Positions 313-25,206 of a DNA stretch of 25,206 bases are shown here, piece after piece. Source of the DNA: Promethearchaeota archaeon (lineage in GTDB: Archaea; Asgardarchaeota; Lokiarchaeia; Sigyniarchaeales; SOKP01); contig JABXKD010000053.1 in NCBI GenBank assembly GCA_013375475.1, forward strand, positions 1 through 25,206, given 5' to 3'. Both the position numbers and the translations under genes were made by a program. Numbering within the stretch: position 1 is the stretch's first letter; the number at the start of each line of letters is the position of its first letter. Under the pieces are notes generated by a model. That model did no database searches and was not told the origin of the DNA. It saw only the letters and a list, made by a program, of their open reading frames with translations.

Positions 313-2148
313 CTAATCACTAAATAGAATCTCGTCCCAAGGTTGTCGGAATAAGCCAGCTCTCTGACGCTTCTGATCGAATACATGCCCCATCATTCCA
401 ATTGACCTTCCAAGTACAAAAAGACCGTTCAATGCTTCACTTTGGATTACATCTTCAATTTCTTCTTTGGTGAAATCTAAATTTTCAAGTAAATCCAGAA
501 ATGTAATGCCTATACAACCGTCAACATTCAGTATTAAATTATTTCTTTTCGAAGTCGTAAGTTTTTCCACTTCTAAAGCATAATCTAAGTGAGGATGTTT
601 TTCAAACTTTTTAAATACAAATTCTTTTAGTAGTGTAACTCGTACATCAGGATTTTGGACAGATTTGATTCGATGCCCAATTCCTGGGATATTAATTTGG
701 ATTACATCCTTCATATAACCCATAAATTCCAATGGTGCCATTTCTTTTTGCAAGGCTTCTCTAAAGTATTTAGCCGCATCAGAGATTGCTCCACCAAATC
801 TTGGACCAATTGTAAGAATTCCTGACGCAAGTGAGGACATTAGATCTTTTCCGGCACGGGCTGTAATTATTGAATTGTGAGCGCCTGAAACTGCTGGACC
901 GTGATCAGCTGTTAATTTGATAACCATCTCAATGAATTCTTGGGCGAAGTCCGGTAATTCTCTCTTAAACCATAATAAACCAATTACATATCCGATGGAT
1001 TTATTATCTTTAATAATAGTATCTAATCCAACGCCAGCGAAAGTAGGAACATCTCCTCTATCGTCAGATATGGTTACTATTACATCAGTTGGTCGTCTTA
1101 CTTTACCTAACCTTACAGCTTCGTTATAATCCAAGGGAATGGAAGGAGGTTCAAATTCTTCAATTGGTTGTATCTTACCTTCATGTTTTAGATTGTCGAA
1201 TGTTTTTCTAATTTCTTTGTCTAAATCTTCGTAAGATTCTGGAACAATTGCGCCAGCTTCTCGTAGGGCCTGATTTTTTGCATCCGCGGTTTCTTTTGAA
1301 CTATCTGCCATAGCACCCGCGTGACCAAACTGTAATCCTTTAGGCAGAATCTTCGCTGCTGTTCCAGTTACCCACACAACTATAGGTTTTGTTATTTTTC
1401 CGTTTTTCAAAGCGTCCACAATCGCATACTCATCGGTTCCACCAATTTCACCTAACACTACTAGCATTTTAATTTTAGGGTTCGCTTCGTATCGCATGAG
1501 ATGATCGATTAATCTCGAACCAGGATACCTATCGCCACCAATGGCAATGCCTTCGTAAACACCATCAGTTGTTTGGCTAATCATAAAATTCATTTCGTTG
1601 CTTAAACCACCTGATTTTGATACAAACCCGACTGATCCGGGACGATATAATTTGGATAGTATAATATTTTCTAAGGTCCCCGCTGTATTTCCAATTTTAA
1701 AAGCACCTGCCATAATTCCACCTACAGTAGCTGGACCAATGATATTTTTATTCCTCTCGTTTGCGATTTTTATTAAATGTCGACTTTGTCTTTCTGGAAT
1801 ACCTTCAGCTATTATAACAACCGTGCGAATTGTATCAGATTCAAGAGCTTCTTTACTAGTTTCGTACGAAGATCTAAAAGAAGCAAAATTTATCGTAACA
1901 TCCGCATTAGGGTGCTTTTTCATGGCTAATTCAAGCGTTTTATAGATAGGTATAACAATTTCCTTATTCCCATAAAAAACTTTGTGATAACTAATCGCCG
2001 CAGTTTGAGTTGGTCTAATTATTGCTGCTACTGACTGTTTTTCTCTCTTACTTACAAAGTCAAAATCAAGCATTCTTTGGATAGGATTTCTTTGAAATCC
2101 GTAGATTATTGCTTGGGTTTCTCTATTAAAAAGTTCATAATCTTCCAT
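313..2148 (-). CDS. aclA: ATP-citrate lyase large subunit (SCS-alpha-like plus citryl-CoA lyase domain)
   Basis: 611 aa. Motifs IAEGIPE, IIGPATVGG, FVSKSGGLSNE, phospho-His loop QFGHAGA, and citrate-synthase-like C-terminal motifs ADHGPAVSGAHN, IPGIGHRIKS, LILNVDG. GGAGG RBS lies in the end of aclB. Confidence 0.96.
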   Translation of the reverse strand: MEDYELFNRETQAIIYGFQRNPIQRMLDFDFVSKREKQSVAAIIRPTQTAAISYHKVFYGNKEIVIPIYKTLELAMKKHPNADVTINFASFRSSYETSKEALESDTIRTVVIIAEGIPERQSRHLIKIANERNKNIIGPATVGGIMAGAFKIGNTAGTLENIILSKLYRPGSVGFVSKSGGLSNEMNFMISQTTDGVYEGIAIGGDRYPGSRLIDHLMRYEANPKIKMLVVLGEIGGTDEYAIVDALKNGKITKPIVVWVTGTAAKILPKGLQFGHAGAMADSSKETADAKNQALREAGAIVPESYEDLDKEIRKTFDNLKHEGKIQPIEEFEPPSIPLDYNEAVRLGKVRRPTDVIVTISDDRGDVPTFAGVGLDTIIKDNKSIGYVIGLLWFKRELPDFAQEFIEMVIKLTADHGPAVSGAHNSIITARAGKDLMSSLASGILTIGPRFGGAISDAAKYFREALQKEMAPLEFMGYMKDVIQINIPGIGHRIKSVQNPDVRVTLLKEFVFKKFEKHPHLDYALEVEKLTTSKRNNLILNVDGCIGITFLDLLENLDFTKEEIEDVIQSEALNGLFVLGRSIGMMGHVFDQKRQRAGLFRQPWDEILFSD

Positions 2149-2149
2149 T

Positions 2150-3445
2150 TTATGCTCCTCCTGTTTCTTCTGCTTGTTTAATTAAATCGATAACTCTAGT
2201 CATATGAGTATATCTATCGTATACTTCTATTGGAATTCCGGTTTCCTGTCCTACTTGTTTCATAAGTTCAAGGCCTAGTTTCTCGTTTGGTCCTCCTCTT
2301 CGCACAAAAATTTTAACTTTCGCTTTTTTCAGTTTTTCAACCGAATTCTTGATGGCACTAACAATTCCAGTAAATGTAGCCTTTACATCCGTGAAGTTAG
2401 CAATTCCTCCGCCAATTATTAAGTATTTTGATCTCCCAGCGGGGTCAGGAGTTTCTGTGATGAGGTCAATTATCGTTTGAGCGTAAATTTCAGTATGTTC
2501 TCTTGATGGATTTCCAGAATATTCTCCATAATTCCCTAACTCTTCTCCAAATCCTAAGTCAACTATCGTATCAGTATAGATAACTGAAGCACCTCCCCCC
2601 GCAACCATAGTCCAAACTCGACCAACTGGATTTAAGATTTTCAGTTTTAAGGAAGCGCCTGTTTTCTCGTCTAATTCCCTTATATATGCTTCTTTTTCAG
2701 ACATAGTTTGTCCGAAACCAGCTGGAAATTCAATCGGATTGTTAGGATTTCCCCACGTGTCTGTGTGAAGAAACATAGCGGTATCGTCTAGTCTCGCTTT
2801 AACATCTAAAGGTACTACTTTGTTATCTTCAGTTATTGCGAAAGGATTGATTTCAAGAAAAGTAAAATCCTGATCAACGAACACCCGATATAGTCCCTTA
2901 ATAAACGGAATTAAGATGTTTTTAGAATCTCCTAAATCTGGCATTTTACCCTCTAAATCGAACGATGTAATATCCGTGCCTAACGGTATGGGTATGTGAA
3001 TAACTTTATCCCAATTTTCTTCTACGAAAATACCCCCTTCAAAACTGAAATGAATGACATCACCGTCTCTTTGGGTCGTTATTGAGACATAGTATTCTTT
3101 TTCGTGAGGAATAAAAGGTTCTACAAGTAAGCGTTTCAAGGCACCCCTCACGTTTCCAATCTCGCATACTCTATCTAAATTACTATAGCAAAAATCTTTC
3201 ATTTCATCACAATTTGCATCTAGTAGAAGTAAGTTTGCTTTCCCCCTTTTTCCAAAAAGCTGGTCAGGTTTAACGACAACCTTTTCTGTATTTATCCACG
3301 AATTATCTGAGATTGATTTCTCTAAATCAGTCTCGCAATCAATAACAACTAATTTGTTATGGTAATTAAATTCCGGAAAATACTTTGGTAATTCGCTCGC
3401 TATAAGCTTTTTCGCATCGTACTCATAAATATTTTTTTGAGCCAA
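2150..3445 (-). CDS. aclB: ATP-citrate lyase small subunit (ATP-grasp plus citrate-binding domain)
   Basis: 431 aa, TTG start. ACL-type motifs EYDAK, KPDQLFGKRGK, WTMVAGGGASVIY, NYGEYSGNP, GGGIANFTDV, VRRGGPN. Ends 1 nt before the aclA start. Confidence 0.96.
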   Translation of the reverse strand: MAQKNIYEYDAKKLIASELPKYFPEFNYHNKLVVIDCETDLEKSISDNSWINTEKVVVKPDQLFGKRGKANLLLLDANCDEMKDFCYSNLDRVCEIGNVRGALKRLLVEPFIPHEKEYYVSITTQRDGDVIHFSFEGGIFVEENWDKVIHIPIPLGTDITSFDLEGKMPDLGDSKNILIPFIKGLYRVFVDQDFTFLEINPFAITEDNKVVPLDVKARLDDTAMFLHTDTWGNPNNPIEFPAGFGQTMSEKEAYIRELDEKTGASLKLKILNPVGRVWTMVAGGGASVIYTDTIVDLGFGEELGNYGEYSGNPSREHTEIYAQTIIDLITETPDPAGRSKYLIIGGGIANFTDVKATFTGIVSAIKNSVEKLKKAKVKIFVRRGGPNEKLGLELMKQVGQETGIPIEVYDRYTHMTRVIDLIKQAEETGGA

Positions 3446-3512
3446 TTTTCTCTCTTTCTCTTATTTTTTTTTAATGTTATGTCAAAGAATTATAATTACT
3501 GTAAACTCAACC

Positions 3513-3662: not shown

Positions 3663-3683
3663 TTTTAGAAAATTAAATGAATT

Positions 3684-5264
3684 TTACAAAGCCATAATTT
3701 TGGCTAATTCTTGCATATTTTTCATGCCTTTAACTTTCAACTTTCCTGTGAGCATTTTTATTAACATACTAACCTTAGAAATCTTTCCACCAGTGAAGTC
3801 GAAAAATAAACTGGCAGTGCAAGCTATTGAACCATCAACTTCAATATTTTTAATAGTATCGCTATCATTTTCAATATGTTTTACATCTAGCGTTCCGTTT
3901 TCAACCGTAATTAACGCGCTATATCTTTGGTCAGTAAGATTGTAGAGAAAACTCATCTTTGCATCGGCATATTCTTCTTTGAATTTTTCATTTTGATTTA
4001 TCTGTCCCATTTGTTGCCATAATAATCCTGCAAGACCGCATCGTTGTTCTTTAGCTTCTTCTTTCATTTGAGCTTTTATAACAGATTCATTCTCAATTCT
4101 CCATTCTTTAAAAGGTTTTTTAGTTGGAATTTTTACTTCAATTTCATCTAGATTGTCTGCGATAGGGAGCTTTCCATAAGTATGAGCTGCGGCTACAGCC
4201 GCGTGAATGTGTTCTGAGGGAGTGTCTGCAGGAACATTTGATAAGAGAATACTTAGGTTATGATCTCGTCCAAAAGCATCAACGAATCTTTTAACATTAT
4301 CTACAATTTTCTCTATGGGTCCATCACGGAGCAATCGAGCATTAATCCCTGCTGTAATTGACACAGTTTTACCTTCTTTTCGAAATTTTTCAGTGTAATT
4401 ACGTACTGCTTCAAGAGGGTATTCATGCCATCGACCCATGACTAAGAACAATGCGGGGTTACCACCCATGCTTGCAATTTGTACATCAAAACTATCATGA
4501 AGTATTTTCTCATCAAATTTTTCTAATCGTTCTTCACAATAGTCTGCTGTCACATTCATCGTGATTACTCCAAATTCGTTGCATTTTTTTTCGAGTCGTT
4601 GATTATAGGGTACAATCAAATCCATCATCTCTTTGGGGGATAGATTTGGCACACTAGCCCACGCATCAGCTCCTATTCCCATTAAATTACCTGTTTTCTC
4701 ATTTTGTATCCTAATCCAAGGTGCTAAAACATCATCAACGGCGAAACTCATTACTCCATGATAAAATTTTGGGTCCTTTTTCATTGCTCTAACGAGTTTT
4801 GGAAATCCCATCAATCCAACTGCTAAGCTAAAAGGCGAGCAAAATATGCATAATCCACTCACCATTGAGCCTGAAGTCTTTAGGATCATCGGAAAGCGTC
4901 CAGCATTATAAAAATCGATTTTTTTATTTTTTAATTTTTCTAAATCTTCATAGTTCTTAATTAACGGTTGGCGGAAATCAATAGTAGGCATAGAATTTTC
5001 GCCATAAATTAATTTACCTCCTAACGCTTCTACTTCTAAATTATAGGAATCATATCCTCCTGCTGGACCATCTAACTCATAATATTTTCCCACTAATCCG
5101 CCTATTTCAAAATTTAAATTAAAATCAGTAAAAAAGGTTTTAGCTGGAACTTCTGCTAAATACATTACATGATCATGGCATTGAGCTGAAATAGCAATAT
5201 GCCCTTTATCACCAATCGAAAGAACACTTCCTAAATCCTTTTTCCTTTCACCTGTTTGAGCCAT
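3684..5264 (-). CDS. URO-D-family (cobalamin-dependent methyltransferase-like) TIM barrel fused to a C-terminal SCP2 lipid-binding domain
   Basis: The first ~400 aa show YNLEVEALGG, GRFP, SPFSLA, ADAWASVPNLSP, GINARLLRDGP and VPADTPSEHIHA, typical of URO-D/MtaA-like proteins. The last ~115 aa (ALITVENGTLDV...MLTGKLKVKG) match the SCP2 pattern. It starts 6 nt after a corrinoid protein gene. Confidence 0.8.
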   Translation of the reverse strand: MAQTGERKKDLGSVLSIGDKGHIAISAQCHDHVMYLAEVPAKTFFTDFNLNFEIGGLVGKYYELDGPAGGYDSYNLEVEALGGKLIYGENSMPTIDFRQPLIKNYEDLEKLKNKKIDFYNAGRFPMILKTSGSMVSGLCIFCSPFSLAVGLMGFPKLVRAMKKDPKFYHGVMSFAVDDVLAPWIRIQNEKTGNLMGIGADAWASVPNLSPKEMMDLIVPYNQRLEKKCNEFGVITMNVTADYCEERLEKFDEKILHDSFDVQIASMGGNPALFLVMGRWHEYPLEAVRNYTEKFRKEGKTVSITAGINARLLRDGPIEKIVDNVKRFVDAFGRDHNLSILLSNVPADTPSEHIHAAVAAAHTYGKLPIADNLDEIEVKIPTKKPFKEWRIENESVIKAQMKEEAKEQRCGLAGLLWQQMGQINQNEKFKEEYADAKMSFLYNLTDQRYSALITVENGTLDVKHIENDSDTIKNIEVDGSIACTASLFFDFTGGKISKVSMLIKMLTGKLKVKGMKNMQELAKIMAL

Positions 5265-5270
5265 ATTAAA

Positions 5271-5906
5271 TCACCCCATAACCTCTTTTGCTTTTTCTAC
5301 GGCATCAAATGCATCTTTACCCCAAGCGTCAGCTTTTATTTCATCAGCAAATTCTTGAGTACAAGGTACTCCACCAATTAACACTTTAACATTGTTTCTC
5401 AATCCTTCATTTTCAAGATGTTTGACTATTTCTTTCATCTCGAGCATTGTTGTGGTCATATAACATCCTAAACCCAAGATATCTGGTTTTTCTTCTTTAA
5501 CTGTTTTAATAAAGACCTCCTTCGATACATCTTCTCCTAAATCAATAACTTCGAAACCTCCTCCTCGAAGAGTTGCATTAACCATAGTTTTACCCAAATT
5601 ATGCATATCCCCCGCAACCGTTCCAATAACAATCTTTCCTGAGGACCCTCTTTCTCCAGCCGAAAGCTTTGGTTCAATATTTTCCATAGCTAGCCGGAAA
5701 GCTTCAGCACATAAAATAATATCTGTGTGAAAATATTCGTTTTGCTTCCACAATTCTCCAGCTTCTTGAATTCCTGGGATTATACCTTCATTCATAATTT
5801 TGTAAGGATCTAATCCCTCAGTTAGAGACTTTTCTGCAAGCTCAGCAGCTAAATCATCATCTCCTTCAAGAACTGCTTTTTTCAAATCAACTAAAATATT
5901 TCCCAT
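5271..5906 (-). CDS. Corrinoid (B12-binding) protein, MtaC/MttC-like
   Basis: N-terminal cap domain plus GTVAGDMHNLGK (DxHxxG), VIDLGEDV, VLIGG, ADAW. GGAG RBS upstream. Confidence 0.93.
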   Translation of the reverse strand: MGNILVDLKKAVLEGDDDLAAELAEKSLTEGLDPYKIMNEGIIPGIQEAGELWKQNEYFHTDIILCAEAFRLAMENIEPKLSAGERGSSGKIVIGTVAGDMHNLGKTMVNATLRGGGFEVIDLGEDVSKEVFIKTVKEEKPDILGLGCYMTTTMLEMKEIVKHLENEGLRNNVKVLIGGVPCTQEFADEIKADAWGKDAFDAVEKAKEVMG

Positions 5907-6051: not shown

Positions 6052-6405
6052 CTATTTAGTAACATCCAGATTTTCCAGTGGAATCCATCCTAATTTTCCA
6101 CTTTCATTTTCTATCAATGCCCAATCGCTTTCTATCTCCTTTATTTTAACTAATTCTCCTTTTGATATGGTAATCTCATAAGAATTATAAGCACGATTGA
6201 ACTGGAACTCTTCAGTTGATTCCTTTACTGGAGTAAGGAAGGCTTTAGGGACCCAACCGTAAATTCCATTCTTAGTTCTACAATAAAGCCATCCTTCCCA
6301 TTGAGTAGGTTTTTCTTTACCAACGACAATCTCACCCTTTTCAGCTTGAAAAGGAATCAGCACCTCTGAATGATGAGATTTAATCACTTTTACTTTATTT
6401 GTCAT
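6052..6405 (-). CDS. Tandem SH3-domain protein
   Basis: Two SH3-like repeats ending WLYCRTKNGIYGWVPKAFL and WALIENESGKLGWIPLENL. ATG at 6405 (TTG at 6408). No signal peptide. Confidence 0.8.
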   Translation of the reverse strand: MTNKVKVIKSHHSEVLIPFQAEKGEIVVGKEKPTQWEGWLYCRTKNGIYGWVPKAFLTPVKESTEEFQFNRAYNSYEITISKGELVKIKEIESDWALIENESGKLGWIPLENLDVTK

Positions 6406-6458
6406 CAAAATTTTTCTTTTTTTCTAGATTTTATATTTAATTCTTACAGCGTATTTAC

Positions 6459-7319
6459 TTACATTAATTTTTGTATTATTTTTGGAACATCCCAGGGTAA
6501 ATCTGCTATTAATGCTCCAGCGTTTTCTAACGCTTGAATCTTTCCTTTTGCGGTCCCAAAATCGCCTGAAATGATCGCTCCAGCATGACCCATCCTCTTT
6601 CCATCTGGAGCGCTTTTTCCAGCAATATAAGCTATAACTGGTTTAGAAACGTTGCCTTTAATAAATTTAGCTGTCTTTTCTTCCTCGTCACTTCCAATTT
6701 CCCCTATAAGGACAATTATTTTTGTGTTAGGATCATCTGAATAATATGTGACAGCTTCTTGCATAGTAGTTCCTCTCACAGGGTCACCACCTATACCTAC
6801 ATAAGCAGAAACTCCGATACCACTTTTTCCTATTGCTTTTGTTATTTCGTATGATAAAGTTCCACTCTTTGAAATTACTGCGACATCGCCGTAATGACAC
6901 ATGTCGTCTGGCATTATACCCAATTTGATTTTATCGGGGATTAACATTCCGGGACAATTTGGGCCAATTAAATGTAACCTTTTTTCTCTAGCTTTCTCTA
7001 CAAGCCTAATCATATCAAAAATTGGTACATTCTCGGATATTATGCATGTCATGTTAATTCTGGCGTTTAGACTTTCCATTGTTGCCCCAAAAGTGAATTT
7101 TGCTGGAACAATGATTATGCTCGTATCTGCATCAGTATCTTGGATTGCCTCTTTCATTTTGTTAAACACTGGAACTCCATATACTTCTTGACCTCCTTTT
7201 TCAGGTGTTACTCCAGCAACAATTTTTGTGCCATAATCAAGCATCAGTTTAGTATGAAACATTCCTTGTTTTCCTGTTATGCCTTGAACTATAACTCTTG
7301 AGTTTTCATTTATATACAT
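6459..7319 (-). CDS. sucD: Succinyl-CoA synthetase alpha subunit
   Basis: VQGITGKQG, VAGVTP, IGPNCPG, SKSGTLSYE, GIGGDP, IGEIG and the phospho-His motif RMGHAGA. Confidence 0.93.
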   Translation of the reverse strand: MYINENSRVIVQGITGKQGMFHTKLMLDYGTKIVAGVTPEKGGQEVYGVPVFNKMKEAIQDTDADTSIIIVPAKFTFGATMESLNARINMTCIISENVPIFDMIRLVEKAREKRLHLIGPNCPGMLIPDKIKLGIMPDDMCHYGDVAVISKSGTLSYEITKAIGKSGIGVSAYVGIGGDPVRGTTMQEAVTYYSDDPNTKIIVLIGEIGSDEEEKTAKFIKGNVSKPVIAYIAGKSAPDGKRMGHAGAIISGDFGTAKGKIQALENAGALIADLPWDVPKIIQKLM

Positions 7320-7320
7320 A

Positions 7321-8445
7321 TTATTCGCTAAGCACCTCTTTTACTTTTTTAACAGCACTCATAATATCTTGAAACGCTTCTATGTTTGCTTGTTTAAGCA
7401 AGACAATTCCCTCCTTTTCGTTCGTTCCTGTTAATCTTATTATCATTGGCGGAGCGTTTGAAAAATCGCTAAGAGCCTGAATTATCGCTTGAGCCACTAT
7501 ATCGCAACGAGTGATACCTCCAAAAATATTCACTAAAACTGCACTAGGTTTTAATTTAAAAATTAATTCGAGTGCTTTATAGACTCTTTCCTTGCTTGCT
7601 CCTCCCCCAACATCCAAAAAATTAGCCGGCTTTAAACCTAATTCGGATAATATATCGAGTAATGCCATAGTAAGCCCAGCCCCATTTGCCAAGATCCCGA
7701 TATTTCCTGATAGTTCAACAAACGAAAACCCTGCATCTTTTGCTAACTTTTCTAAATCACTTAACTTTCTATCTTGTAATCTTTGAACGATTGGCTGCCG
7801 AAATGCCGCATCATCGTCTAAAATCATTTTGCCATCTACAGCAAATAATCCAGAAGGCGTCATTACCAGGGGATTTATCTCCACAAGCTGTGCCTCTAAT
7901 TTAAAGGCTATATCCCATAATTTCATGAATATTTGGGACGCCTCAGCATTTTGTTTACCACTAAGTCCCAATTGGTTGGCAATTCCGTTTGCTAACTCTT
8001 CAGAGATCCCATCTTGAAAGGAAAAACTCTCTTTAAGTATTGCGTCTGGTGTTGTTTTAGAAACCTCTTCAATATCAATCCCCCCTTCTTTGCTAGCAAT
8101 CAGATAAAATTGTCTCCCAGAAGCATCTAAGGCTACGGAACAATAATACTCTTGTTCTACTGTTACGAGTTCTTCAATAAGAATTGCTTCAACCTCAAAC
8201 CCCGCTACATTTCTTTTAAAATACTCATCACACAGTGAAATTGCCTCATTTGCAGATTTAGCAATTTTTATTAAGCCTGCTTTTTTTCTGCTTCCTATAG
8301 CGATTTGCGATTTAACTAATGCCGGGAATGAAAAATCTTTAACTTTTTCCTCAATATCTTCGCCCTTAAGAATCAACATATTATTAACTAATGGAATACC
8401 AAACTCACTAAAAATTTCCTTACTCTCGTATTCGAGCAATCTAAT
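7321..8445 (-). CDS. sucC: Succinyl-CoA synthetase beta subunit (probable ATT start at 8445; the track starts at TTG 8439)
   Basis: (M)RLLEYESK, EGGIDIEEV, EINPL, NGAGLTMA, PANFLDVGGGA, NIFGGITRCD, RLTGTNE. GAGGT RBS lies 7 nt before the ATT. Confidence 0.92.
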   Translation of the reverse strand: MRLLEYESKEIFSEFGIPLVNNMLILKGEDIEEKVKDFSFPALVKSQIAIGSRKKAGLIKIAKSANEAISLCDEYFKRNVAGFEVEAILIEELVTVEQEYYCSVALDASGRQFYLIASKEGGIDIEEVSKTTPDAILKESFSFQDGISEELANGIANQLGLSGKQNAEASQIFMKLWDIAFKLEAQLVEINPLVMTPSGLFAVDGKMILDDDAAFRQPIVQRLQDRKLSDLEKLAKDAGFSFVELSGNIGILANGAGLTMALLDILSELGLKPANFLDVGGGASKERVYKALELIFKLKPSAVLVNIFGGITRCDIVAQAIIQALSDFSNAPPMIIRLTGTNEKEGIVLLKQANIEAFQDIMSAVKKVKEVLSE

Positions 8446-8633: not shown

Positions 8634-10058
8634 ATGACAACCTTAAATAATGATGCGAAGCCGGCTCAATCTGAAGAATCAAGTCTTATAAAGATGGCAA
8701 TGTTTTCAACCGGATATTTTTTGAATATTTTTTTAATGGTAGCCTTTACTAATTTTGTCTGGACATTCTATGTAAGTGAACTTGGTTTAAAAAGTATAGA
8801 AGGTTTATGGTATATATATATGGCAATCGCAAATGCCATATACACAATATGGAGTATGCTGATTAACCCTGTAATGGGATATCTTACCGATAGACCCTTC
8901 AAATGGACCAAAAAGCGAGGTTTTCATACTCCATGGATCATTATTGGAGGGGTTCCTACGATTATTCTTTTTTTTTTCCTATTTACACCTCCTCAAGTAA
9001 CAGGAATTGAGAGCGTATTGCCCATTCTAATCTACTACATAATAATCGTTTTATTATACGATTTATCGTATTCTCTTCTCCAAACTCATTCTTTTGGAGC
9101 TTTTGCTGCTCATTTTAGAGGAGATAAAAATCGTAGAAAAGGAGGAATATTAACACAAATTTTCACATTTATAGCAAATTTCTTAGCAATTACAATTTGG
9201 TCTCAAATAATTGATTCCGGGAATCCAACATCGTACACAATCGCTGCATTTATCAGCATTATTATCCTCTCATTTTCATTTGCGGTATTTATACCAGGAG
9301 CTAAGGAGGATAGCGTGATAAAAGAAAGATTTAGTGTAGGGCATGGCAGCTCGGATAAAATTTCCTTTTTAAAAACATTGAAGATATGTTTAAAACAAAA
9401 AAATTTCATGTTAGCTATATTCTCTTATCTTACATTCATGATTTCGTTTGGTCTAATGAGTATGAATGCAGTCAATTTTGTTGATGATGTTCTACAAGAG
9501 GGGCAATACATAAGAAGTTTAGGTTCAATCTTAATGCTTTTATCTTCATTTGTAACAATACCTATATGGGCTCGCTTAGCTAAAAAAATAGGCCATTCGA
9601 AAACTTACACAATAGGTTTAGCTTCCTACGGAGTAAGTTTATTATTTAATGTTTTTATTGCAGACGCCTTTCAATTCTATTTAATCAGCATCCTTAACGG
9701 AGCATCAAGCTCCTCGTTCTTAATTATGTTATCACCCGTTTTTGCCGATTGCTACGATGAAATCGCTTTGAAAATAAAGAAGCATCAACAGACTACACTA
9801 ATTGGAATTAGGAATGTTTTCCTTCGAATTTCCGTATCGATTCAGAGTTTTATAATAGCAATTATATACACACTCACACATTATGACCCGCGCAATGTTT
9901 CTCATCAATTTGAACCTTTACTAGGTCTTCGGATAATACAAGGATTACTTCCTTTCATTGTTTGCATCGTGGGTGCGTTAATTTTTTATAAGTGGTATGA
10001 TCTGAAAGGTACCAAAAAACAAGAAGTTACTCGTAAATTACGGGAATTAGGTTTGTAA
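8634..10058 (+). CDS. MFS transporter, glycoside-pentoside-hexuronide (MelB-like) family
   Basis: 474 aa with about 12 hydrophobic segments. NPVMGYLTDR, PIWARLAKKIG, PVFADCYDE and C-terminal YDLKG...LRELGL. Confidence 0.88.
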   Translation: MTTLNNDAKPAQSEESSLIKMAMFSTGYFLNIFLMVAFTNFVWTFYVSELGLKSIEGLWYIYMAIANAIYTIWSMLINPVMGYLTDRPFKWTKKRGFHTPWIIIGGVPTIILFFFLFTPPQVTGIESVLPILIYYIIIVLLYDLSYSLLQTHSFGAFAAHFRGDKNRRKGGILTQIFTFIANFLAITIWSQIIDSGNPTSYTIAAFISIIILSFSFAVFIPGAKEDSVIKERFSVGHGSSDKISFLKTLKICLKQKNFMLAIFSYLTFMISFGLMSMNAVNFVDDVLQEGQYIRSLGSILMLLSSFVTIPIWARLAKKIGHSKTYTIGLASYGVSLLFNVFIADAFQFYLISILNGASSSSFLIMLSPVFADCYDEIALKIKKHQQTTLIGIRNVFLRISVSIQSFIIAIIYTLTHYDPRNVSHQFEPLLGLRIIQGLLPFIVCIVGALIFYKWYDLKGTKKQEVTRKLRELGL

Positions 10059-11618: not shown

Positions 11619-11676
11619 ATTGTCACCTTTTTTTTTAAAAATCAATCTTAATTGGATTATTTAACTCTTTATTAAC

Positions 11677-14087: not shown

Positions 14088-14269
14088 AATGAGATTAATC
14101 CCTAATATAGGTATAGTTCACCCAATTTTGTTATAAATCATAATAATTTCTATAACCTTAGTATTTATAAACTATAAAAAAAGGCTTTTTAATTTCAGAT
14201 ATGACTCTCTAATATAAGCTAAAAATAATTTGAGAAAAAAAAATCGTTTATTATAGGCTGTGAAAATTG

Positions 14270-16933: not shown

Positions 16934-17833
16934 GTGACAAAAAAGATACCAGTAATTCTTGACACTGATATAGGGTTGGACATTGATGATACATGGGCCT
17001 TAGGTTTATTGTTAAAATCCCCAGAATTAGACGTTAAATTAATAACAACGTCATCAGATAATACATCGCTAAAAGCAAAACTAGTTGCCAAATTCCTCGA
17101 AAGTGTTGGTCGAACTGACATTCCTATAGGGATTGGGGTTCCAGAAAATAGTAAAAAAGGGTGGCAGTATCCATGGGTAGAAGATTATGATATATCGCAA
17201 TACCCTGGTACTGTTCACAATAATGCTGCGGAAATGATCTGTTCTACAATAACCAATTCTATTACTCCTATAACGCTCATCTCTATTGGTCCCTTAGGTA
17301 CCGTTGCAGAAGCACTTAAACTGAATCCTAACATAGTAGATAACTCGCGTTTCGTTGGGATGCAGGGGAGTATTCGCAAGGGATATGGGGGCTCAGAAAC
17401 ACAACATAAGGAGTATAATGTGAAAAAGAACATAAAGGCGTGTAGAGAGGTATTTCAGGCTCAGTGGGAGAAAACGATTACGCCACTGGACACCTGTAGA
17501 GATGTTATACTAAAAGGTTCGCTTCTAGAGCGCTTTATGAAGAGCAACAATTTAGTTGTCCAATCAATAAAGGAAAACTATAATATATGGAAAAAGAAGC
17601 TTATTCCGAAATTAGTAATGGTTAAAAAGAACCAAACATCGGCCCTCTTTGACACCGTAGCGATTTATCTCGGTTTCTCTGAAGATCTACTTAATATTGA
17701 AGAATTAAAAATCGAAGTTACCCATAATGGCTTAACTCAAATTAACGAAAAAGGGAATCTGATACGGTGTGCAACTTCTTGGAAAGATGTCCAATTATTT
17801 AAAGAAATGCTAGTTGATCGACTCACAAATTAA
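16934..17833 (+). CDS. Nucleoside hydrolase (inosine-uridine preferring family)
   Basis: N-terminal Asp cluster DTDIGLDIDD, then IGPL, EYNV, TPLD, LFD. GTG start. Confidence 0.9.
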   Translation: MTKKIPVILDTDIGLDIDDTWALGLLLKSPELDVKLITTSSDNTSLKAKLVAKFLESVGRTDIPIGIGVPENSKKGWQYPWVEDYDISQYPGTVHNNAAEMICSTITNSITPITLISIGPLGTVAEALKLNPNIVDNSRFVGMQGSIRKGYGGSETQHKEYNVKKNIKACREVFQAQWEKTITPLDTCRDVILKGSLLERFMKSNNLVVQSIKENYNIWKKKLIPKLVMVKKNQTSALFDTVAIYLGFSEDLLNIEELKIEVTHNGLTQINEKGNLIRCATSWKDVQLFKEMLVDRLTN

Positions 17834-17944: not shown

Positions 17945-19299
17945 ATGACATTCAATAGTTTTATTCGAAAATTTCCAACTGCTGTAACTTACATCTTTTT
18001 TTGCTTCCGTTCTTTAGCATAATGAGCCTAGATTCATACTTATCATCATACTTATTCTTTCATTACAACGTCGTAATAGGAATACCCATTTTCGTAATTA
18101 TTATTCCTACTGGACTAATAAGATTGATATTTCCATTCTTTCAACCCTTATTAGGATCTATTTCAGATAGAAACTATCCATTTACTCGAAACAAGGGAAG
18201 ACGCTTTCTTTGGATAATGATTTTTGGTTTTCAAATACCGATCTTTTTTGTACTTCTATTCTGGATACCCGCTTTAGATGTATTGATTTTTTTTATTATT
18301 TTCACAACTTTTTACATGCTTTATAATGTTGTCTTTTCACTCTTTACATCGAACTATTCGGCCTTATTGCTTAATAAGTTTAGAAATCCCAAAGAACGAT
18401 TGCTCATTGGGGTAGTAACGGAATTTATCAGTACAATTGGAATTTTTATTATATGGATTTTTGCACCACTTTTCATCGGTTATGGAGATCCTTCCTCTTT
18501 TCAAATTTTAGCTATTCCAGTTGCTATCGTATTTGCTGTTACGCTTTCACTTGGCATATTTGGATTATTAGAAGAGAAAGAGTTAATTGATACTTATTTC
18601 AGTCCAAAACAAACCCCGTAAAAAGGATTCTTGAGAGATATGTTCAAAGGTTTTGCTATTTTTAAACGCAAAAACTTCGTTGTATTACTATTTCGGTGGA
18701 TAACCTTCGGATTATTTAATTATCTCTTTCTTTCAGGATTATTTAATTACGCAATATTTGTTTTAGGAGCCCCTTATTTCATTGCATCATTTTTTTCTAT
18801 GGGATATATAATATGGTCTTTAATCGCACTCCCGCTTAGTTTCCTTCTTTCATATTTAATTGGGCACTTAAAAGTATCCATAATTTCAGGTTTTGTAATG
18901 GGAGCAACACTCCTTCCATTTCTCTTTATCAACGACATCTTTATAACAGTGATATTAACCTCTATAATTGGATTCACATTTGGTCTCGGAGCAGGATCAT
19001 TAATCCCTCTGGTGGGAGATGTGTTCGACGAACACGCAAATACTAATCGTAGACGCTCAGAAGGAGTTTCTTATGGAATATTGAAGATGTTTGGAGGTTT
19101 GGCTGTTATAATGGGGAATTTCATAACTTCTCTTTTTTACACTCTTATAGGATTCCCCGGATTGGGTATAAGAATACTTACTACAACGATTCCTGGTATA
19201 TTGATAATAATCGTGATGATTTTATTCACTGTGTTGTACGATTTAAAGCCAGAAAAAACGGAAGCCATTCGAATGGAACTTAAAGAACTCGAATTATAA
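17945..19299 (+). pseudogene. Disrupted GPH/MFS transporter (in-frame TAA plus probable frameshift)
   Basis: Track ORFs 18001-18621 and 18631-19299 share a frame and are separated by one TAA (CCG TAA AAA GGA). Together they give QPLLGSISDR...PLVGDVFDE...YDLKP...LKELEL. The ATG 17945 frame joins by a 1-nt shift in the T7 run at 17996-18002. Confidence 0.75.
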
Positions 19300-19408: not shown

Positions 19409-21121
19409 ATGAGAATCGAAGAATTTGACGTAGTTGTAGTAGGCGCAGGTCTTAGTGGTCTTAGAGCAGGCTTAGAATTATCGGAAAAATGGAACACTGC
19501 GGTTATTAGCAAAGTTTATCCTGTCAGAAGCCATTCAGGAGCCGCTCAAGGAGGGATCAATGCAGCATTGGGGAATTTAGAAGAGAGTAAAAATGACACT
19601 CCAGAAGGACATGCGTTTGATACGGTAAAAGGCTCAGATTACCTTGCAGATCAAGATGTAGTGATGTTTATGTGTAAGGAAGCTCCTAAAATCGTTGTAG
19701 AATTTGAAAGTATGGGAGCTCCATTTTCGAGATTAGATTCTGGTCTTATTGCACAACGTCCCTTTGGTGGAGCGGGGTTTCCTAGAACCTGTTATGCCGG
19801 GGATAGAACAGGACACGCGTTGCTTCACACATTAAACGAGCAGAGCGTAAGAAATAGCGTGGAATTCTTTAACGAATACTTTCTAATAGACCTTATCGTC
19901 GTTAACGAAAAAATTACGGGAATAATTACTTTAGATATAAATAAAGGCGAACTCGTAATTTTTCGGGCTCTGTATGTTATACTGGCAACAGGAGGATTTG
20001 GAAGGATTTTTAAAAATTCCACAAATGCCTTGATTAACACAGGGGATGGGGTGGGTGCTGCGTTTCGTGCTGGAGTCCCGATGCAAGACGTAGAATTCGT
20101 ACAATTTCACCCTACTACGCTTTACGGCACGAACATATTAATTACTGAAGGTGCGAGAGGAGAAGGCGGGTATTTGTTTAATACTGAAGGAGAAAGATTT
20201 ATGTCAAAAACAGCTCCAAAAGCTATGGAACTTGCTCCACGAGATATTGTTGCAAGGGCTAACGATATTGAAGTTCTAGAAGGAAGAGGTTTCGAAAATG
20301 CTTATGTTCATTTAGATCTTACTCATCTGGGTGCTGACCGTATAAAGGAAAGGTTACCGGGAATAAGAGATATATCCATTTTCTTTGCTGGAGTTGATCC
20401 AATAGAAGAACCTATCCCTGTCCAACCCGGTCAACATTATAGTATGGGTGGAATCGGGACGAAGTATAAGGGTATATACGGAGAAACAGATATCCTCGGT
20501 TTATATACAATTGGCGAGTGTTCTTGTCTTTCTGTTCACGGCGCTAATCGTTTAGGGGGAAATTCTTTATTAGAAACATCTGTCTTTGGCCGCTATATTG
20601 GAAGAAAGCTATTAGAAATTGGATTACCCCAAAAGACAGCATTAAGCGACATAAAAAGTGCCGAAGATAGTGTTATAGAGAATGTCGAAGGACTTCTAAA
20701 AAGCTGGGATACGAATACAGGCAAGAGACCAATAGAGATCAAAAATAGTATGGGTGAGACTATGAACAAGAATGTTGGAGTTTTTAGAACTCATAATGAT
20801 CTATCAAAAGCATGCGATGTTCTGGTTGGCCTACAAAGAGATTTTCTAAATGTCAAAGTTTCAACTGAAGATCGTAAATTTAATTATGGCTTACTCCGAA
20901 ATTTGGAACTTAGATCTATGTTAGACATTGCAGAAGCTACTGCGTATGCGGCCCTATGGAGAAAAGAAAGTAGAGGGGGACACTATCGTTGGGACTACGA
21001 TTCTCGCGATGATGATAATTTTCTTAGCCATTCAATGATATATCGAGTAAAAGATGGTCTGGAATTAAAAACTAAACCGGTCGTATTAGGAATATTTGAA
21101 GTAAAAGAGAGGAATTATTAA
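19409..21121 (+). CDS. sdhA: Succinate dehydrogenase/fumarate reductase flavoprotein subunit
   Basis: [16 protein letters not shown] (covalent FAD His), [42 protein letters not shown]. Confidence 0.95.
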
Positions 21122-21138
21122 GTGGAGTGTGATTAAAA

Positions 21139-21903
21139 GTGAGTGAGAAACAAAAATTTTTGGTGTATAGAAGTTTAGGAAATGGATCTGTTCGGTACGA
21201 AAGATACGAAGTACCTCTTTCGAAAGGAATGAGCATTTTGGACGCTCTTTTTTACATACAAGATTACCATGACTCTACCTTCGCATTTCGTTACGCTTGT
21301 AGAGGGGCAATTTGTGGTAGTTGCGGTATCATGATTGATAAAGTTCCTATGTTGGCTTGTAGAACTCAAGTTTCAACAATTAAAACAGCTAAGAAACCTT
21401 TGAATCTTCCCGAAGTAGTTTTTGGAGATATCACTGATTGGGACCATGAGAATGAAATTCTAATCGAACCTTTACCAAATATGAACAGCATTAAAGATCT
21501 TGTAGTAGATATGGAACCATTCTGGAAATACTATCGAGAAGTTGAGCCTTATTTTACAAGAGATTGGAACGATATCGCCCCTGAATCGGCTCAATCGCCT
21601 AACGAAATGAAAATAATAGAAAAGCTAGTCTATTGTATATTATGTGGAATATGTTGGATGTGCCCTGTAAACTCAAAAAATCCTGCCTACTTGGGTCCGG
21701 CTCAGTTAGCAAAATCAGACAGATTTGTAAGAGATTCGAGAATTGACAGCGAGAAACAAAAAAACTCTCTATCACGGGTTTTGCAAGATGACGCTGTTCC
21801 TGCTTGTGAAAAGTTATTCGTCTGTAATAAAGTGTGTCCTAAAGATGTTATGCCAGGAACGGCTATTAAAGATATCCGAGATAATTGGGTATCAGAAAGA
21901 TAA
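21139..21903 (+). CDS. sdhB: Succinate dehydrogenase/fumarate reductase iron-sulfur subunit
   Basis: CRGAICGSC...LAC (2Fe-2S), IKDLVVD, CILCGICWMCP, CEKLFVCNKVCP. GTG start with GGAG upstream. Confidence 0.93.
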   Translation: MSEKQKFLVYRSLGNGSVRYERYEVPLSKGMSILDALFYIQDYHDSTFAFRYACRGAICGSCGIMIDKVPMLACRTQVSTIKTAKKPLNLPEVVFGDITDWDHENEILIEPLPNMNSIKDLVVDMEPFWKYYREVEPYFTRDWNDIAPESAQSPNEMKIIEKLVYCILCGICWMCPVNSKNPAYLGPAQLAKSDRFVRDSRIDSEKQKNSLSRVLQDDAVPACEKLFVCNKVCPKDVMPGTAIKDIRDNWVSER

Positions 21904-21928
21904 TAAAAAAAGCTAAAAGAGATATAAT

Positions 21929-22777
21929 CTATTTCCATCGAGAAAGTGTAGGGTTCCACATTCCCAAATACAATCCTTCATCGAACTTATCTAAATTAGC
22001 CATATCATCCTCGGAAATAGTAAAATCAAAGATTTTGCTGTTTTCAATTATATGATTTTCATTAGATGATTTTGGAATTTCAATAATTTTATGTTGTAAC
22101 CCCCAACGTATTAGGATTTGAGCACTAGATTTACCATATTTGTTCGCTATATCCATGAGTTTTGGGTCTTTTAATTTTTTACCTCGTGTTAAGGGGCTAT
22201 ATGCTTCCAACATTATCCCTTTATTGTCGCAGTACTCTTTAAGCTCTTTCAAATAAAGATATGGGGTTAATTCAACTTGATTTACGGCAGGAATTATATC
22301 TGCTCCATTTAGTAATTCATCAAGATGATTTTCATAATAATTGCTAACACCAATTGAACGAGCTTTACCCTCTTTAAAAATCGATTCTAAGGCTTTCCAA
22401 GCTTCTTGCCGATAGGTTGGTTCTGGCCAATGTAGTAAATAAAGATCCACATAGTCTAATCCTAGATTGTTTAAACTTCTATCAAAAGCTTTTAATGCCT
22501 TCTCGTGTTTAAACGAATCAATCCAAAGCTTGGTAGTAATGAAGATATCTTCTCGATTAATACCTTGTTCTTCTAATGAGATCTTTAAACCCTTTCCAAC
22601 ACCATTTTCATTTCCATATATTCGAGCTGTATCAATGTGTCTATAGCCATTACTTATGGCCCATCGTACCACATTAATAATAGTGTCTCCTTCAGATATT
22701 TCCCATGTGCCTAATCCGAAAAGAGGCATCTCAACACCATTGTTTAATTTAATCTTTGTATTAATATTTAAACTCAT
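21929..22777 (-). CDS. Aldo-keto reductase (AKR5/2,5-DKG-reductase-like)
   Basis: GLGTW, GYRHIDTARIYGNE, ITTKLW, DLYLLHWP, IGVSN, VNQVE, AYSPL, IPKS. Confidence 0.95.
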   Translation of the reverse strand: MSLNINTKIKLNNGVEMPLFGLGTWEISEGDTIINVVRWAISNGYRHIDTARIYGNENGVGKGLKISLEEQGINREDIFITTKLWIDSFKHEKALKAFDRSLNNLGLDYVDLYLLHWPEPTYRQEAWKALESIFKEGKARSIGVSNYYENHLDELLNGADIIPAVNQVELTPYLYLKELKEYCDNKGIMLEAYSPLTRGKKLKDPKLMDIANKYGKSSAQILIRWGLQHKIIEIPKSSNENHIIENSKIFDFTISEDDMANLDKFDEGLYLGMWNPTLSRWK

Positions 22778-22874
22778 AATTTCTCACAATTCTGTTATAA
22801 TCGGTATTAAGTAAAGATAATTTTTAAGCATATAAATTATAAAATCAAAGAAAGATTAGAGATGATTGTTAAAA

Positions 22875-24347
22875 ATGAAAGAATATCGAATTAACGATAA
22901 ATGGATATTAGATCGAGTGTCTTCTCAAAGCACCAGTTTTAGTCAATGGATAGAGAATATAATGAAAACCGTCGAACAATCTTTAAAAGAAGTTAATCCT
23001 GAACAGCTAGAAGAGATCAAGAAAGATAAAAAGTTCAGCTCTCTTAAAGATATTGATAAAGAATTGGCTAATGCTAAAAGAGAAATCGCTAAAATGGGGA
23101 ATGTTGGAGGATTACGAAATAAAATGGGCTCAAATATATCCAATTGGGTAATGAAAACTATTGACCGAGAACTTGAGGAATCGCGATCTGAATTAGAGGA
23201 TCTTGATTTTGATATTGGCATGATTACTGGAAAACGAAAGAACTTATCTTCAGCTCTCTATGATGTATCAAAGGATCGGGGTATTGAGTCAAAAGGATTG
23301 TTATATTTAATAAAAGCTTTACCAGATCTAGAAGCATTCCTGTACAGTACAAGCGTACGAAAATACTATAGAGATCACACCGAACACGCCCTTCGCGTCG
23401 CAGTTTTAGGCGATTTTCTCTTAGAACAAGATCTTGGTCATGGGACTCTATCGGGAGTAATTTCTGATCTGACGGGATTAGACAAGAATCTCCTTAAAGA
23501 CAAGTATTGGTGGGTCACCGGATTAATCCACGATATCGGTTATCCTTTAGGAAAAATGACAACAGCTGTTAATTTTTCTCTTGTAAATCAATTGTTAAAG
23601 TGTTATCCAACTTTAGATTTAGAATTTTTACCATTTGAGATTTCTTTATCTTGGAAAGGCAATCAAGAGGAATATTTGAACATTATAGAGGATGGTTTAT
23701 CTAAAAACGCGCGAGCCTTGATAAGGGAAGGAGTAGGATTTAATAAATATAATAAAATCTCTCAAAAGCCCCATGTTTATTTAAGAACTGAAGATGGTCA
23801 CCCAGAATTTAATTACCAAAGTATTTTAAATTTGGATCACGGAGTAATCTCTGCTCTTTCTCTTTTAAACGGACTTGGTACTCCAGATGAGATTAAGAAT
23901 AATGACGAATACGAGGGATATATAATAACAGCAAAAGCGATAGCTCTTCATAATTTTAAAGCTCAACTTAAGGAATATACATTTGATAGCCATCCTTTAG
24001 CTTTTTTTTTGATGTTGATTGACGAATTACAAGAATGGGGAAGACCTATTCCAATTCAAGTTCGGGACACATATTTCACTACAGAAATAAAAAAAGTAAC
24101 ATTATTAGATGATATCTTATTAAATCTGGACGAGTTTTCTTGGTTAATGCAATTTAAGAATAATAGAGCTAAAAATTTGATGGAGTTTGACTTTAACTCA
24201 TTTTCTAAAGAAAAGGAAAAATCTTTCGGGAGGCTAGACCGTGGAGAAAGTTTTTCTAAAACAACTATCAATCTTCAAGACTTAAAAATAGGTAAAAGTA
24301 AAGATCGTAAAGGTGAAATACTTAACCAATCAACAATCGTTATCTAA
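22875..24347 (+). CDS. HD-domain phosphohydrolase with N-terminal coiled coil
   Basis: RDHTEHALRV, IHDIGYP, DHGVISA, AIALHN, LIDELQEWGR. Charged heptad-like N-terminus. ATG 22875 (TTG 22866). Confidence 0.75.
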   Translation: MKEYRINDKWILDRVSSQSTSFSQWIENIMKTVEQSLKEVNPEQLEEIKKDKKFSSLKDIDKELANAKREIAKMGNVGGLRNKMGSNISNWVMKTIDRELEESRSELEDLDFDIGMITGKRKNLSSALYDVSKDRGIESKGLLYLIKALPDLEAFLYSTSVRKYYRDHTEHALRVAVLGDFLLEQDLGHGTLSGVISDLTGLDKNLLKDKYWWVTGLIHDIGYPLGKMTTAVNFSLVNQLLKCYPTLDLEFLPFEISLSWKGNQEEYLNIIEDGLSKNARALIREGVGFNKYNKISQKPHVYLRTEDGHPEFNYQSILNLDHGVISALSLLNGLGTPDEIKNNDEYEGYIITAKAIALHNFKAQLKEYTFDSHPLAFFLMLIDELQEWGRPIPIQVRDTYFTTEIKKVTLLDDILLNLDEFSWLMQFKNNRAKNLMEFDFNSFSKEKEKSFGRLDRGESFSKTTINLQDLKIGKSKDRKGEILNQSTIVI

Positions 24348-24449
24348 AAATAAGCTAATGTTCAAACTTATTGTCTATTAGTATAAACTTTTTTTATTAA
24401 TCCGTTTCTAATAACCTTATACTTAAACAAATTTTGGTTGTTTTAAATT

Positions 24450-25206
24450 TTGAATTACCGCATAGAAAAAGATGTTTTGGGCGAAATAGAAGTCCCTAAC
24501 GATGTATTTTGGGGTATTAATACCCAGAGAGCATTGCAAAACTTTCAAATAAGTGGAAAGAAATTTCCTGATATATTTATCTTATCGCTAGCACAGGTAA
24601 AAAAAGCATGTCTATTAGCAAATATTGAGCTGGGTTTGATCGATAAAGAAAATGGAGATGCTATCCTACAAGCAGTTAACGAGATTTTAAAAGAAGATAA
24701 ATACTTGAATCAATTTCCAATCGATATTTATCAAACTGGAAGTGGAACTCAAACAAACATGAATATGAACGAAGTATTAGCTAACAGGGCATCTCAAATC
24801 TTAGGATTTCCTATGGGTAAAAAGCATCCAATACATCCAAATGATCATGTAAATAAAAGCCAATCTTCTAATGATGTCATCCCAAGTACAATGCATGTAT
24901 CTACTGCTCATATGATCAAGAAATTATTACCAGTATTAAATAGATTGAAAGAAGTTCTAGCTGCTAAAATAGAAGAATTCGAAGATATTATCAAAGTCGG
25001 AAGAACTCATTTACAGGATGCGGTCCCAATACCTCTATCGTTAGAGTTTAAAGTTTACAAAAACCAAATTGAAACTAATATTAAACGATTAAATAAGGTT
25101 TTGGATGAGTTGTTCTACATTCCAATAGGTGGAACTGCCTTAGGAACAGGATTAAACGCTCATGAGGATTTTGGCAGACTCACAGTATCCCATCTTTCTG
25201 AGATAA
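24450..25206 (+). CDS. fumC: Class II fumarate hydratase, 3'-truncated by the window (absent from the ORF track)
   Basis: Manual translation from TTG 24450: MNYRIEKDVLGEIEVP...WGINTQRALQNF...QTGSGTQTNMNMNEVLANRA...HPNDHVNKSQSSND...GRTHLQDAVP...GGTALGTGLN. QTGSGT favours FumC over AspA (QGGAGT). Confidence 0.93.
   Translation, partial: MNYRIEKDVLGEIEVPNDVFWGINTQRALQNFQISGKKFPDIFILSLAQVKKACLLANIELGLIDKENGDAILQAVNEILKEDKYLNQFPIDIYQTGSGTQTNMNMNEVLANRASQILGFPMGKKHPIHPNDHVNKSQSSNDVIPSTMHVSTAHMIKKLLPVLNRLKEVLAAKIEEFEDIIKVGRTHLQDAVPIPLSLEFKVYKNQIETNIKRLNKVLDELFYIPIGGTALGTGLNAHEDFGRLTVSHLSEI

Follow-up and report, generated by a model that had tools for sequence, protein, structure and literature searches.

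The 25,206-nucleotide Promethearchaeota contig analyzed here (JABXKD010000053.1; "the window" hereafter) carries nine genes for five tricarboxylic acid (TCA) cycle enzymes: ATP-citrate lyase (ACL; aclA and aclB), succinyl-CoA synthetase (SCS; sucC and sucD), a 2-oxoacid:ferredoxin oxidoreductase (OFOR; oforA and oforB), a succinate dehydrogenase/fumarate reductase (sdhA and sdhB), and a fumarase-like protein (fumC). Our judgment, which covers the reading as a whole and stands a little better than even, is that the window represents an ACL-type citric-acid-cycle cluster of Lokiarchaeota-type Asgard archaea, in a loosened form that the assembly has broken. With the same modest confidence, we suggest that these enzymes would belong to a reversible ferredoxin-linked cycle, run in a reductive or branched mode, that serves intermediary metabolism and not autotrophy.

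The window is the entire 25.2-kb contig C237 of a 3.92-Mb genome (G000; 288 contigs, 32.5% G+C) rated 100% complete and 6.4% contaminated. Genes were called from a listing of open reading frames (ORFs) and from Pfam and NCBIfam profile scans of the window proteins, by which all nine TCA-related genes are open frames and fumC alone is truncated. This bears out the initial annotation, which had claimed nine genes for five such enzymes within 25 kb, each at or near the place where we find it. It had also proposed an Asgard, Lokiarchaeia-like host, and the closest aclB loci (up to 94% identity) do come from metagenome-assembled genomes (MAGs) of Promethearchaeota, the name to which "Candidatus Lokiarchaeota" resolves in the NCBI taxonomy. 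By our own arithmetic, the probability that five units fall by chance inside one 25-kb span of a 3.92-Mb genome is p ~1e-8.

The window aclBA is a predicted two-subunit ATP-citrate lyase. AclB (2150..3445, minus strand; 431 aa) scores 221.7 bits against Citrate_synth_N (cut-off 83) and 258.3 bits against Citrate_bind, and AclA (313..2148, minus strand; 611 aa) joins the Pfam domains CoA_binding and Ligase_CoA to a C-terminal Citrate_synt domain. Together they have a beta-type ATP-grasp plus citrate-binding subunit and an alpha-type CoA-binding/ligase subunit fused to a citryl-CoA-lyase domain. AclA matches Methanosaeta (Methanothrix) concilii ACLY-B over its full length (6hxi_B, 782.7 bits) and human ACLY at residues 431-1033 (6hxh_A, 740.6 bits). 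It retains the histidine motif "QFGHAGA" and the Asp of "NVDGCIG," a position at which the deposited variant 6znw_B has Ala; we take the "GHAG" His and this Asp to be the catalytic residues of the lyase module. The subunit split, the domain order, and both of these residues are shared with the M. concilii enzyme (6hxi/6znw). A search of the genome for the Citrate_synt family found no citrate synthase, aclA being the sole match, so ACL would be the only citrate-forming enzyme.

Both SCS subunits, SucD (6459..7319, minus strand; NF004230, 378.2 bits, cut-off 336) and SucC (7321..8439, minus strand; NF001913, 370.8 bits, cut-off 370), exceed the equivalog cut-offs for ADP-forming succinyl-CoA synthetase. 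The OFOR is a two-subunit enzyme of the OAFO_sf type. Its alpha subunit is a gamma-alpha fusion (14267..16012, plus strand; TIGR03710, 583.6 bits, cut-off 482.75), and its beta subunit (15993..16862, plus strand), which binds thiamine pyrophosphate, scores 342.2 bits against TIGR02177 (cut-off 261.9) and 418.5 bits, slightly below the cut-off of 438, against NF008821. The closest solved structures are the Sulfolobus tokodaii OFOR (5b48_A) and the Magnetococcus marinus enzyme (6n2n_A) for alpha, and 5b48_B, 5b46_B, and 6n2n_B for beta. These best solved matches (5b46/5b48 and 6n2n/6n2o) have the same alpha(gamma-fused)/beta architecture, whereas the alpha scores are moderate (244.7 and 237.4 bits). 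In two compact clusters of relatives (L046 and L071; see below), the OFOR genes sit between sucCD and sdhAB. Gene context and the closest solved enzymes make the window OFOR a candidate 2-oxoglutarate:ferredoxin oxidoreductase (KOR), in a genome with about ten alpha genes for OFORs or indolepyruvate:ferredoxin oxidoreductases (IORs).

SdhA (19409..21121, plus strand; 570 aa; TIGR01812, 737.3 bits, cut-off 567.3) is the sole true SdhA/FrdA flavoprotein of the genome, the other SdhA-like gene being NadB, and it is followed by the iron-sulfur subunit SdhB (21139..21903, plus strand; 254 aa; TIGR00384, 195.7 bits, cut-off 88). SdhA keeps a ten-residue motif with the FAD-linking His, presumably the covalent-FAD site. 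Neither in the window nor in L046 and L071 is sdhB followed by an anchor gene, and the whole genome has no match to Sdh_cyt (CCG-type SdhE and FrdC/D anchors were not searched for). An SdhAB without an Sdh_cyt anchor argues against the oxidation of succinate to quinone.

The last of the nine, fumC (24450..25206, plus strand), is a class II fumarase-type gene represented by its first 252 codons; since the contig ends inside it, the assembly's C237 holds no DNA beyond fumC. The fragment scores level against fumC_II (305.2 bits) and the aspartase subfamily (304.1 bits), for which reason we considered an aspartase. The full-length orthologue in L046 scores 580.9 bits against fumC_II, below the cut-off of 664.75, and 517 bits against the aspartase subfamily, above the cut-off of 510. 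However, its top 28 solved-structure matches are all fumarases, ahead of the first aspartase, and the window fragment contains "SQSSND," which we read as a fumarase signature. Both points make an aspartase less likely, and we favour a class II fumarase for this gene.

The grouping of these genes recurs in relatives. A scan with AclB yielded 75 loci, nearly all from MAGs of Promethearchaeota and Hermod-, Hod-, Heimdall-, Thor-, and Odinarchaeota, at 67-94% identity. Flanks were limited to 10 kb and many loci are truncated where their contig stops, which makes these counts minimum values; a gene was counted when its product had at least 55% identity over at least 40 aligned residues to a window protein. 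Beside aclB we found aclA in 73/75 loci, sucC or sucD in 32/75, fumC in 24/75, oforA in 7/75, and sdhA in 4/75. At least three of the five window enzymes are present in 16/75 loci, and all five in 2/75 (L046 and L071), where fumC-sdhB-sdhA-oforB-oforA faces sucC-sucD-aclB-aclA with hardly any spacers. In both of these loci, aclA is directly followed by a 402-aa gene of the Iso_dh family that resembles isocitrate dehydrogenase (IDH). This IDH-like gene is present in 57/75 loci, and in 46 of these it is no more than 400 b away on the downstream side of aclA; a fused 650-aa aconitase is encoded in 15/75. ACL stands without any other TCA gene in 5/75 loci; four of these are 3.0-8.6 kb long or cut, and the fifth is the Methanotrichaceae locus L089, which differs from the Asgard loci in its aclB (52% identity) and in the lack of further TCA genes in the 10 kb to each side. 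The initial annotation had named a lack of conserved clustering in relatives as grounds for refuting its proposal, and the clustering turns out to be conserved, in particular for sucCD, fumC, and the IDH-like gene.

What is the IDH-like protein, and where is it in the window's own genome? In the relatives its best NCBIfam models are isocitrate dehydrogenases, all below cut-off; its ten best solved matches are likewise isocitrate dehydrogenases, and it keeps "SANVSMRR," which we read as an isocitrate dehydrogenase motif. The Iso_dh family has one full gene in G000, which is LeuB-like. Using the relatives' protein, tblastn found the last 44 codons of idh at the extreme end of the 7,295-b contig C28 (7293..7162, minus strand; 82-84% identity); this fragment was the only match, and the remainder of idh, as well as the 3' half of fumC, is absent from the other contigs of the genome by tblastn. 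The window itself starts inside orf1 (1..288, plus strand), a hypothetical gene that encodes 255 aa in L088 and has its last 95 codons in the window, of which 89 align at 87.6% identity to L088:13208-13975(-). Because the closest relatives (L024, L083, and L088) have the order aclB-aclA-orf1-idh, C28 most likely joins the left edge of C237 across a gap of ~1-1.5 kb, which would place the IDH-like gene just outside the window.

A comparable case can be made for aconitase. In three same-genus genomes a 163-aa gene and two HGD-D (2-hydroxyglutaryl-CoA-dehydratase-like) genes lie beside the fused aconitase gene in divergent orientation (e.g., L109 8349-11316). In G000 the counterparts of these neighbors fill the 2,826-b contig C65, one end of which lies ~220 b upstream of the 163-aa gene, where aconitase would begin. 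The missing aconitase is thus likely to be an assembly gap, though G000 may truly have lost the gene. A HacAB-like pair on C110 was considered as a substitute aconitase and set aside, since same-genus genomes have both this 419-aa type and the fused 650-aa aconitase. The HGD-D genes beside aconitase are a possible link to glutamate fermentation. In all, three contig ends of G000 lie in or beside conserved TCA genes: C28 in idh, C65 beside aconitase, and the 3' end of C237 in fumC. The apparent lack of Idh and aconitase, which if genome-wide had been held to speak against a reverse TCA module, most likely arose in the assembly, at genes that are highly conserved; for Idh this is backed by the cut gene on C28, while for aconitase it is inferred from the end of C65 and from the presence of the gene in most relatives.

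Whole genomes give a second view of conservation. The survey covered 41 genomes, namely G000 itself, 24 others from its genus, and 16 from its order. ACL, detected by Citrate_bind, is present in 30/41 (22/24 of the same genus), the IDH-like gene in 26/41 (20/24), and an aconitase-family frame of at least 590 aa in 31/41 (19/24). SdhA is encoded in 11/41 genomes, the window's own included (8/24), and an OFOR of the window type, at 62% identity or more, in 9/41 (6/24), with matches limited to 45-51% identity in 12 further genomes. In one same-genus genome (G018:C100:13779-15506), the orthologue of the OFOR alpha gene has one in-frame TAA. ACL-IDH(-aconitase) is therefore the widespread core, and the half made up of SCS, OFOR, Sdh, and fumarase is kept by a minority that includes G000. 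In the same-genus genome G017, a single contig carries idh, aclB, oforA, sdhA, and an aconitase frame of 649 aa inside 21.4 kb, and the nine genes form a tight divergent cluster, fumC-sdhBA-oforBA facing sucCD-aclBA-idh. The two genomes closest by SdhA (G002 and G008, 92% identity) have a loosened layout like that of the window. The one-contig genome G032 has acn-aclB-aclA-idh as neighbors on one strand. The compact form of the cluster, from which the nine window genes derive or to which they are related, thus persists in a genome of the same genus.

How might these enzymes work together? Together with the inferred IDH and aconitase and a candidate malate dehydrogenase of the Ldh_2 type, they would form a reversible cycle linked to ferredoxin. 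IDH and aconitase would convert 2-oxoglutarate to citrate, and citrate would be split by ACL into acetyl-CoA and oxaloacetate. Reduction of C4 acids by fumarase and SdhAB would give succinate, which SCS and OFOR would in turn link with 2-oxoglutarate. In such an amphibolic role the cycle would join carbon from glutamate and aspartate, the acetyl-CoA that the Wood-Ljungdahl pathway supplies, and precursors for biosynthesis, and we consider this role more likely than a stand-alone pathway of CO2 fixation. For this strict anaerobe the succinate step favours a reductive or branched mode, since succinate oxidation is hard to place where no quinone-linked acceptor is found. The direction of the cycle and the fixation of carbon are not readable from DNA sequence.

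Several observations weigh against this proposal. The assembly has just the 44-codon piece of idh, and not even a fragment of an aconitase of the fused or AcnA type was found in G000, where an aconitase-family search returned two LeuCD/HacAB-type pairs only. For the 2-oxoglutarate step, the genome has candidates besides the window OFOR: a second two-subunit pair and two enzymes of four subunits that are Kor/Oor-like. SdhA retains its FAD-linking His, so SdhAB may work in either direction. The malate dehydrogenase candidates, two tandem Ldh_2 genes on C166, score below every NCBIfam cut-off, and the genome has no Ldh_1_C match that would indicate a malate dehydrogenase of the Ldh_1 type. A search of sequencing runs gave no RNA run that would report on expression; its single match contained 0.06 of the sampled words and is probably DNA. 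Pyruvate carboxylase (PYC_OADA), archaeal PEPcase_2, PEPCK_ATP, and PEPCK_GTP were not found in G000 (PEPcase PF00311 was not searched for). However, GTP-PEPCK is present in 10/10 relatives searched, so its absence from G000 probably reflects the assembly, and these anaplerotic negatives do not inform the direction of the cycle; taken with the breaks at highly conserved genes, this absence indicates that the "100% complete" rating hides gaps. Finally, the second half of the cycle is patchy among the surveyed genomes, with SdhA in 11/41 and the OFOR orthologue in 9/41, versus ACL in 30/41.

One could go further and attribute full autotrophy to this gene set, with ACL, KOR, and fumarate reductase running a closed reductive cycle that supplies cell carbon. 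All three marker enzymes are encoded, no citrate synthase was found in G000, IDH-like and aconitase genes are syntenic in relatives, and the genome has four PorA-like candidates for pyruvate synthase; the same reading is proposed in the available text of a preprint (bioRxiv 10.1101/385732). We nevertheless regard it as unlikely, roughly a minority case. The genome also encodes the Wood-Ljungdahl enzyme CdhC, which would leave a second fixation route unneeded, and glutamate dehydrogenases (two tandem genes that, like the Ldh_2 genes, lie on C166; paired regions 20512-22553 and 41430-43748), IORs, and many OFORs point to the use of amino acids. Aconitase was not found in the G000 assembly. Moreover, most ACL-bearing genomes of the same genus have neither SdhA nor an orthologue of the window OFOR, so that ACL there would sit in a cycle unable to close. 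Of the reverse-TCA module put forward by the initial annotation, then, a real and conserved TCA-type module in a Lokiarchaeota-type archaeon stands, while a role in carbon fixation is not supported; the distribution of SdhA and OFOR relative to ACL speaks against a general reverse-TCA reading.

Alternatively, the window may contain two separate modules, a reading that we rate as still less probable than the autotrophic cycle. Here aclBA-idh(-acn) would interconvert 2-oxoglutarate with acetyl-CoA and oxaloacetate, and fumC-sdhAB-sucCD would be the reductive succinate arm of a propionate-type fermentation via methylmalonyl-CoA. The link between aclBA and idh is by far the most conserved at the 55% identity threshold (57/75 loci versus 4/75 with sdhA), G000 has two genes of the MM_CoA_mutase family, and Imachi et al., in the part of their text available to us, place the SdhA flavoprotein under propionate fermentation. 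The hard fact to explain is that both halves and the OFOR that joins them form one tight divergent cluster in L046, L071, and G017. A related and equally doubtful proposal, taken as a whole, holds that the trio aclBA-idh(-acn), and not a cycle, is the conserved core. It would serve as a stand-alone reductive carboxylation, in which an amino-acid-fermenting Asgard turns glutamate-derived 2-oxoglutarate into acetyl-CoA and oxaloacetate, the same logic by which eukaryotic cells use IDH1, aconitase, and ACLY in the cytosol. In this view the arm of fumarase and anchorless SdhAB would act as a redox valve, and the MFS_2 transporter beside the operon might exchange a carboxylate with syntrophic partners.

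The opposite direction has a precedent as well: Desulfobacter postgatei reportedly runs a citric acid cycle with ATP-citrate lyase. In a cycle of that type, ACL would run in reverse, making citrate with a gain of ATP, and the oxidation of acetyl-CoA would yield CO2. Apart from the precedent itself (Moller et al. 1987, known to us by title), this would fit G000 in that ACL, with no citrate synthase found, is the only citrate-forming enzyme, and in that SdhA keeps its FAD-linking His. It differs in that the cycle of D. postgatei is oxidative and coupled to sulfate respiration, whereas neither an Sdh_cyt anchor nor a quinone-linked or other respiratory acceptor for succinate oxidation was found in G000, and the available text of Bulzu et al. 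finds no components of oxidative phosphorylation in Lokiarchaeia besides the ATPase. We consider an oxidative cycle very improbable. Chance co-location of unrelated housekeeping genes, which might be suspected because both strands are used and unrelated genes interrupt the set (a methyltransferase, transporters, PGA_cap proteins, and a nucleoside hydrolase), is contradicted by the synteny counts, as dozens of genomes at species level share the linkage, some of them in a tight form, and we give it almost no credence.

The favoured reading, a reversible ACL-type cycle encoded by a loosened cluster, can be set beside known systems. In the ACL-type reverse TCA cycle of Chlorobium and the Campylobacterota, ACL, a ferredoxin-dependent 2-oxoglutarate oxidoreductase, and fumarate reductase replace the irreversible steps. 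The same three types of enzyme are encoded in the window, the OFOR substrate and the Sdh direction being putative; the differences are that the window SdhAB is anchorless, that the OFOR has two subunits, and that the host is an anaerobe with a Wood-Ljungdahl pathway as well.

The closest counterpart is the Lokiarchaeia reconstruction of Bulzu et al. (bioRxiv 10.1101/385732, 2018), which in its available text proposes a reverse TCA cycle based on ACL, IDH, and KOR, reports that sdhC/D are lacking, and finds malate dehydrogenase solely as COG2055 (the Ldh_2 family). Taxon, ACL, an isocitrate dehydrogenase-like gene, a candidate 2-oxoglutarate:ferredoxin oxidoreductase, missing sdhC/D, COG2055, and the Wood-Ljungdahl pathway all agree with what we describe. 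The compact locus L071 is from the isolate AMARA_1, and the available text names other AMARA and TEKIR MAGs, from which we infer a link between the data sets. Two differences stand out: insertions have loosened the copy in G000 and contig ends interrupt it, and the restriction of the Sdh/OFOR half to a minority of relatives weakens a general "autotrophic" reading. The idea of an ACL-based TCA cycle in Lokiarchaeia is therefore already known and has been in print since 2018, and the novelty implied by the initial annotation does not hold. In the parts of these papers available to us, Asgard ACL or the reverse cycle is also treated by MacLeod et al. (PMC6646929), who report the reverse TCA gene from two genomes of Lokiarchaeota; by a preprint of 2022 (10.1101/2022.10.25.513756), which finds that most Asgard phyla have ACL; by Santana-Molina et al. 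(PMC11976288), who discuss Asgard ACLA/B; and by Sun et al. (PMC9723677), who mention that the reverse TCA cycle of Sif- and Jordarchaeia is partial. At least three such papers beyond the 2018 preprint deal with Asgard ACL. We found no description of the clustering of these genes in the published text on Asgard ACL that was available, though the gene tables of Bulzu et al. and Santana-Molina et al. may show it.

Other genes lie between and around the TCA set. On the minus strand, sucC, sucD, an SH3 gene, a corrinoid gene, a methyltransferase gene, aclB, and aclA form one run with spacers of 6-238 b. The methyltransferase (3684..5264, minus strand) is URO-D/MtaA-like by Pfam and NCBIfam and, at 526 aa, longer than the ~340-aa family models; next to it lies a B12-binding corrinoid protein of the MtgC/MtbC-like type (5271..5906, minus strand). 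This pair (3684-5906) has a counterpart in 0/75 aclB loci at the threshold of at least 55% identity, and its insertion hints at a methyl-group system, methylotrophic or of the O-demethylase type, separate from the TCA set. The small SH3-domain protein (6052..6408, minus strand; 118 aa; Pfam SH3_2) is found at the same position in 11/75 loci.

Divergent from sucC is a transporter of the MFS_2 (GPH) type (8634..10058, plus strand; 131.9 bits), whose orthologue lies beside aclBA or sucCD in 31/75 loci; we would guess that it carries a carboxylate, its substrate being putative. MFS paralogues are numerous in G000, with matches on 15 contigs with a related MFS protein. A further MFS_2 gene in the window (18001..19299, plus strand) has a single in-frame TAA at 18619-18621, with both halves matching MFS_2; either a sequencing error or a gene that is split or has decayed to a pseudogene could account for this. 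Two paralogous PGA_cap (CapA-like) proteins are encoded on the minus strand (10131-11645 and 12034-13416) on either side of a 110-aa ORF; counterparts of the first are present in 7/75 loci. The same MFS and PGA_cap neighbors flank an Asgard-type aclBA (83-84% identity) in L041, a record titled "Candidatus Nanopelagicaceae bacterium" that is probably a mis-binned or mislabelled contig.

The remaining genes are a zinc-ribbon protein (13620..14087, plus strand), which recurs at this position in 8/75 loci, a nucleoside hydrolase (16934..17833, plus strand), and an aldo-keto reductase (21929..22777, minus strand), each identified by the Pfam and NCBIfam scans, and an ORF of 493 aa (22866..24347, plus strand) with no Pfam or NCBIfam family. 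The closest ESM Atlas cluster to this ORF comprises 260 hypothetical proteins, mostly from Promethearchaeota, and the clusters found are unnamed; lower-ranked ones give weak hints of an HD-type domain.

The patchy retention of the Sdh/OFOR half argues against taking every Asgard ACL as evidence of a closed reverse cycle. If a working ACL-based cycle does exist in G000 and its relatives, it would be a second Asgard route for CO2 and acetyl-CoA beside the Wood-Ljungdahl pathway. The central carbon metabolism of these archaea bears on carbon cycling in anoxic sediments, and, as no known group is related more closely to the eukaryotic host cell than the Asgards, it also bears on models of the origin of eukaryotes.

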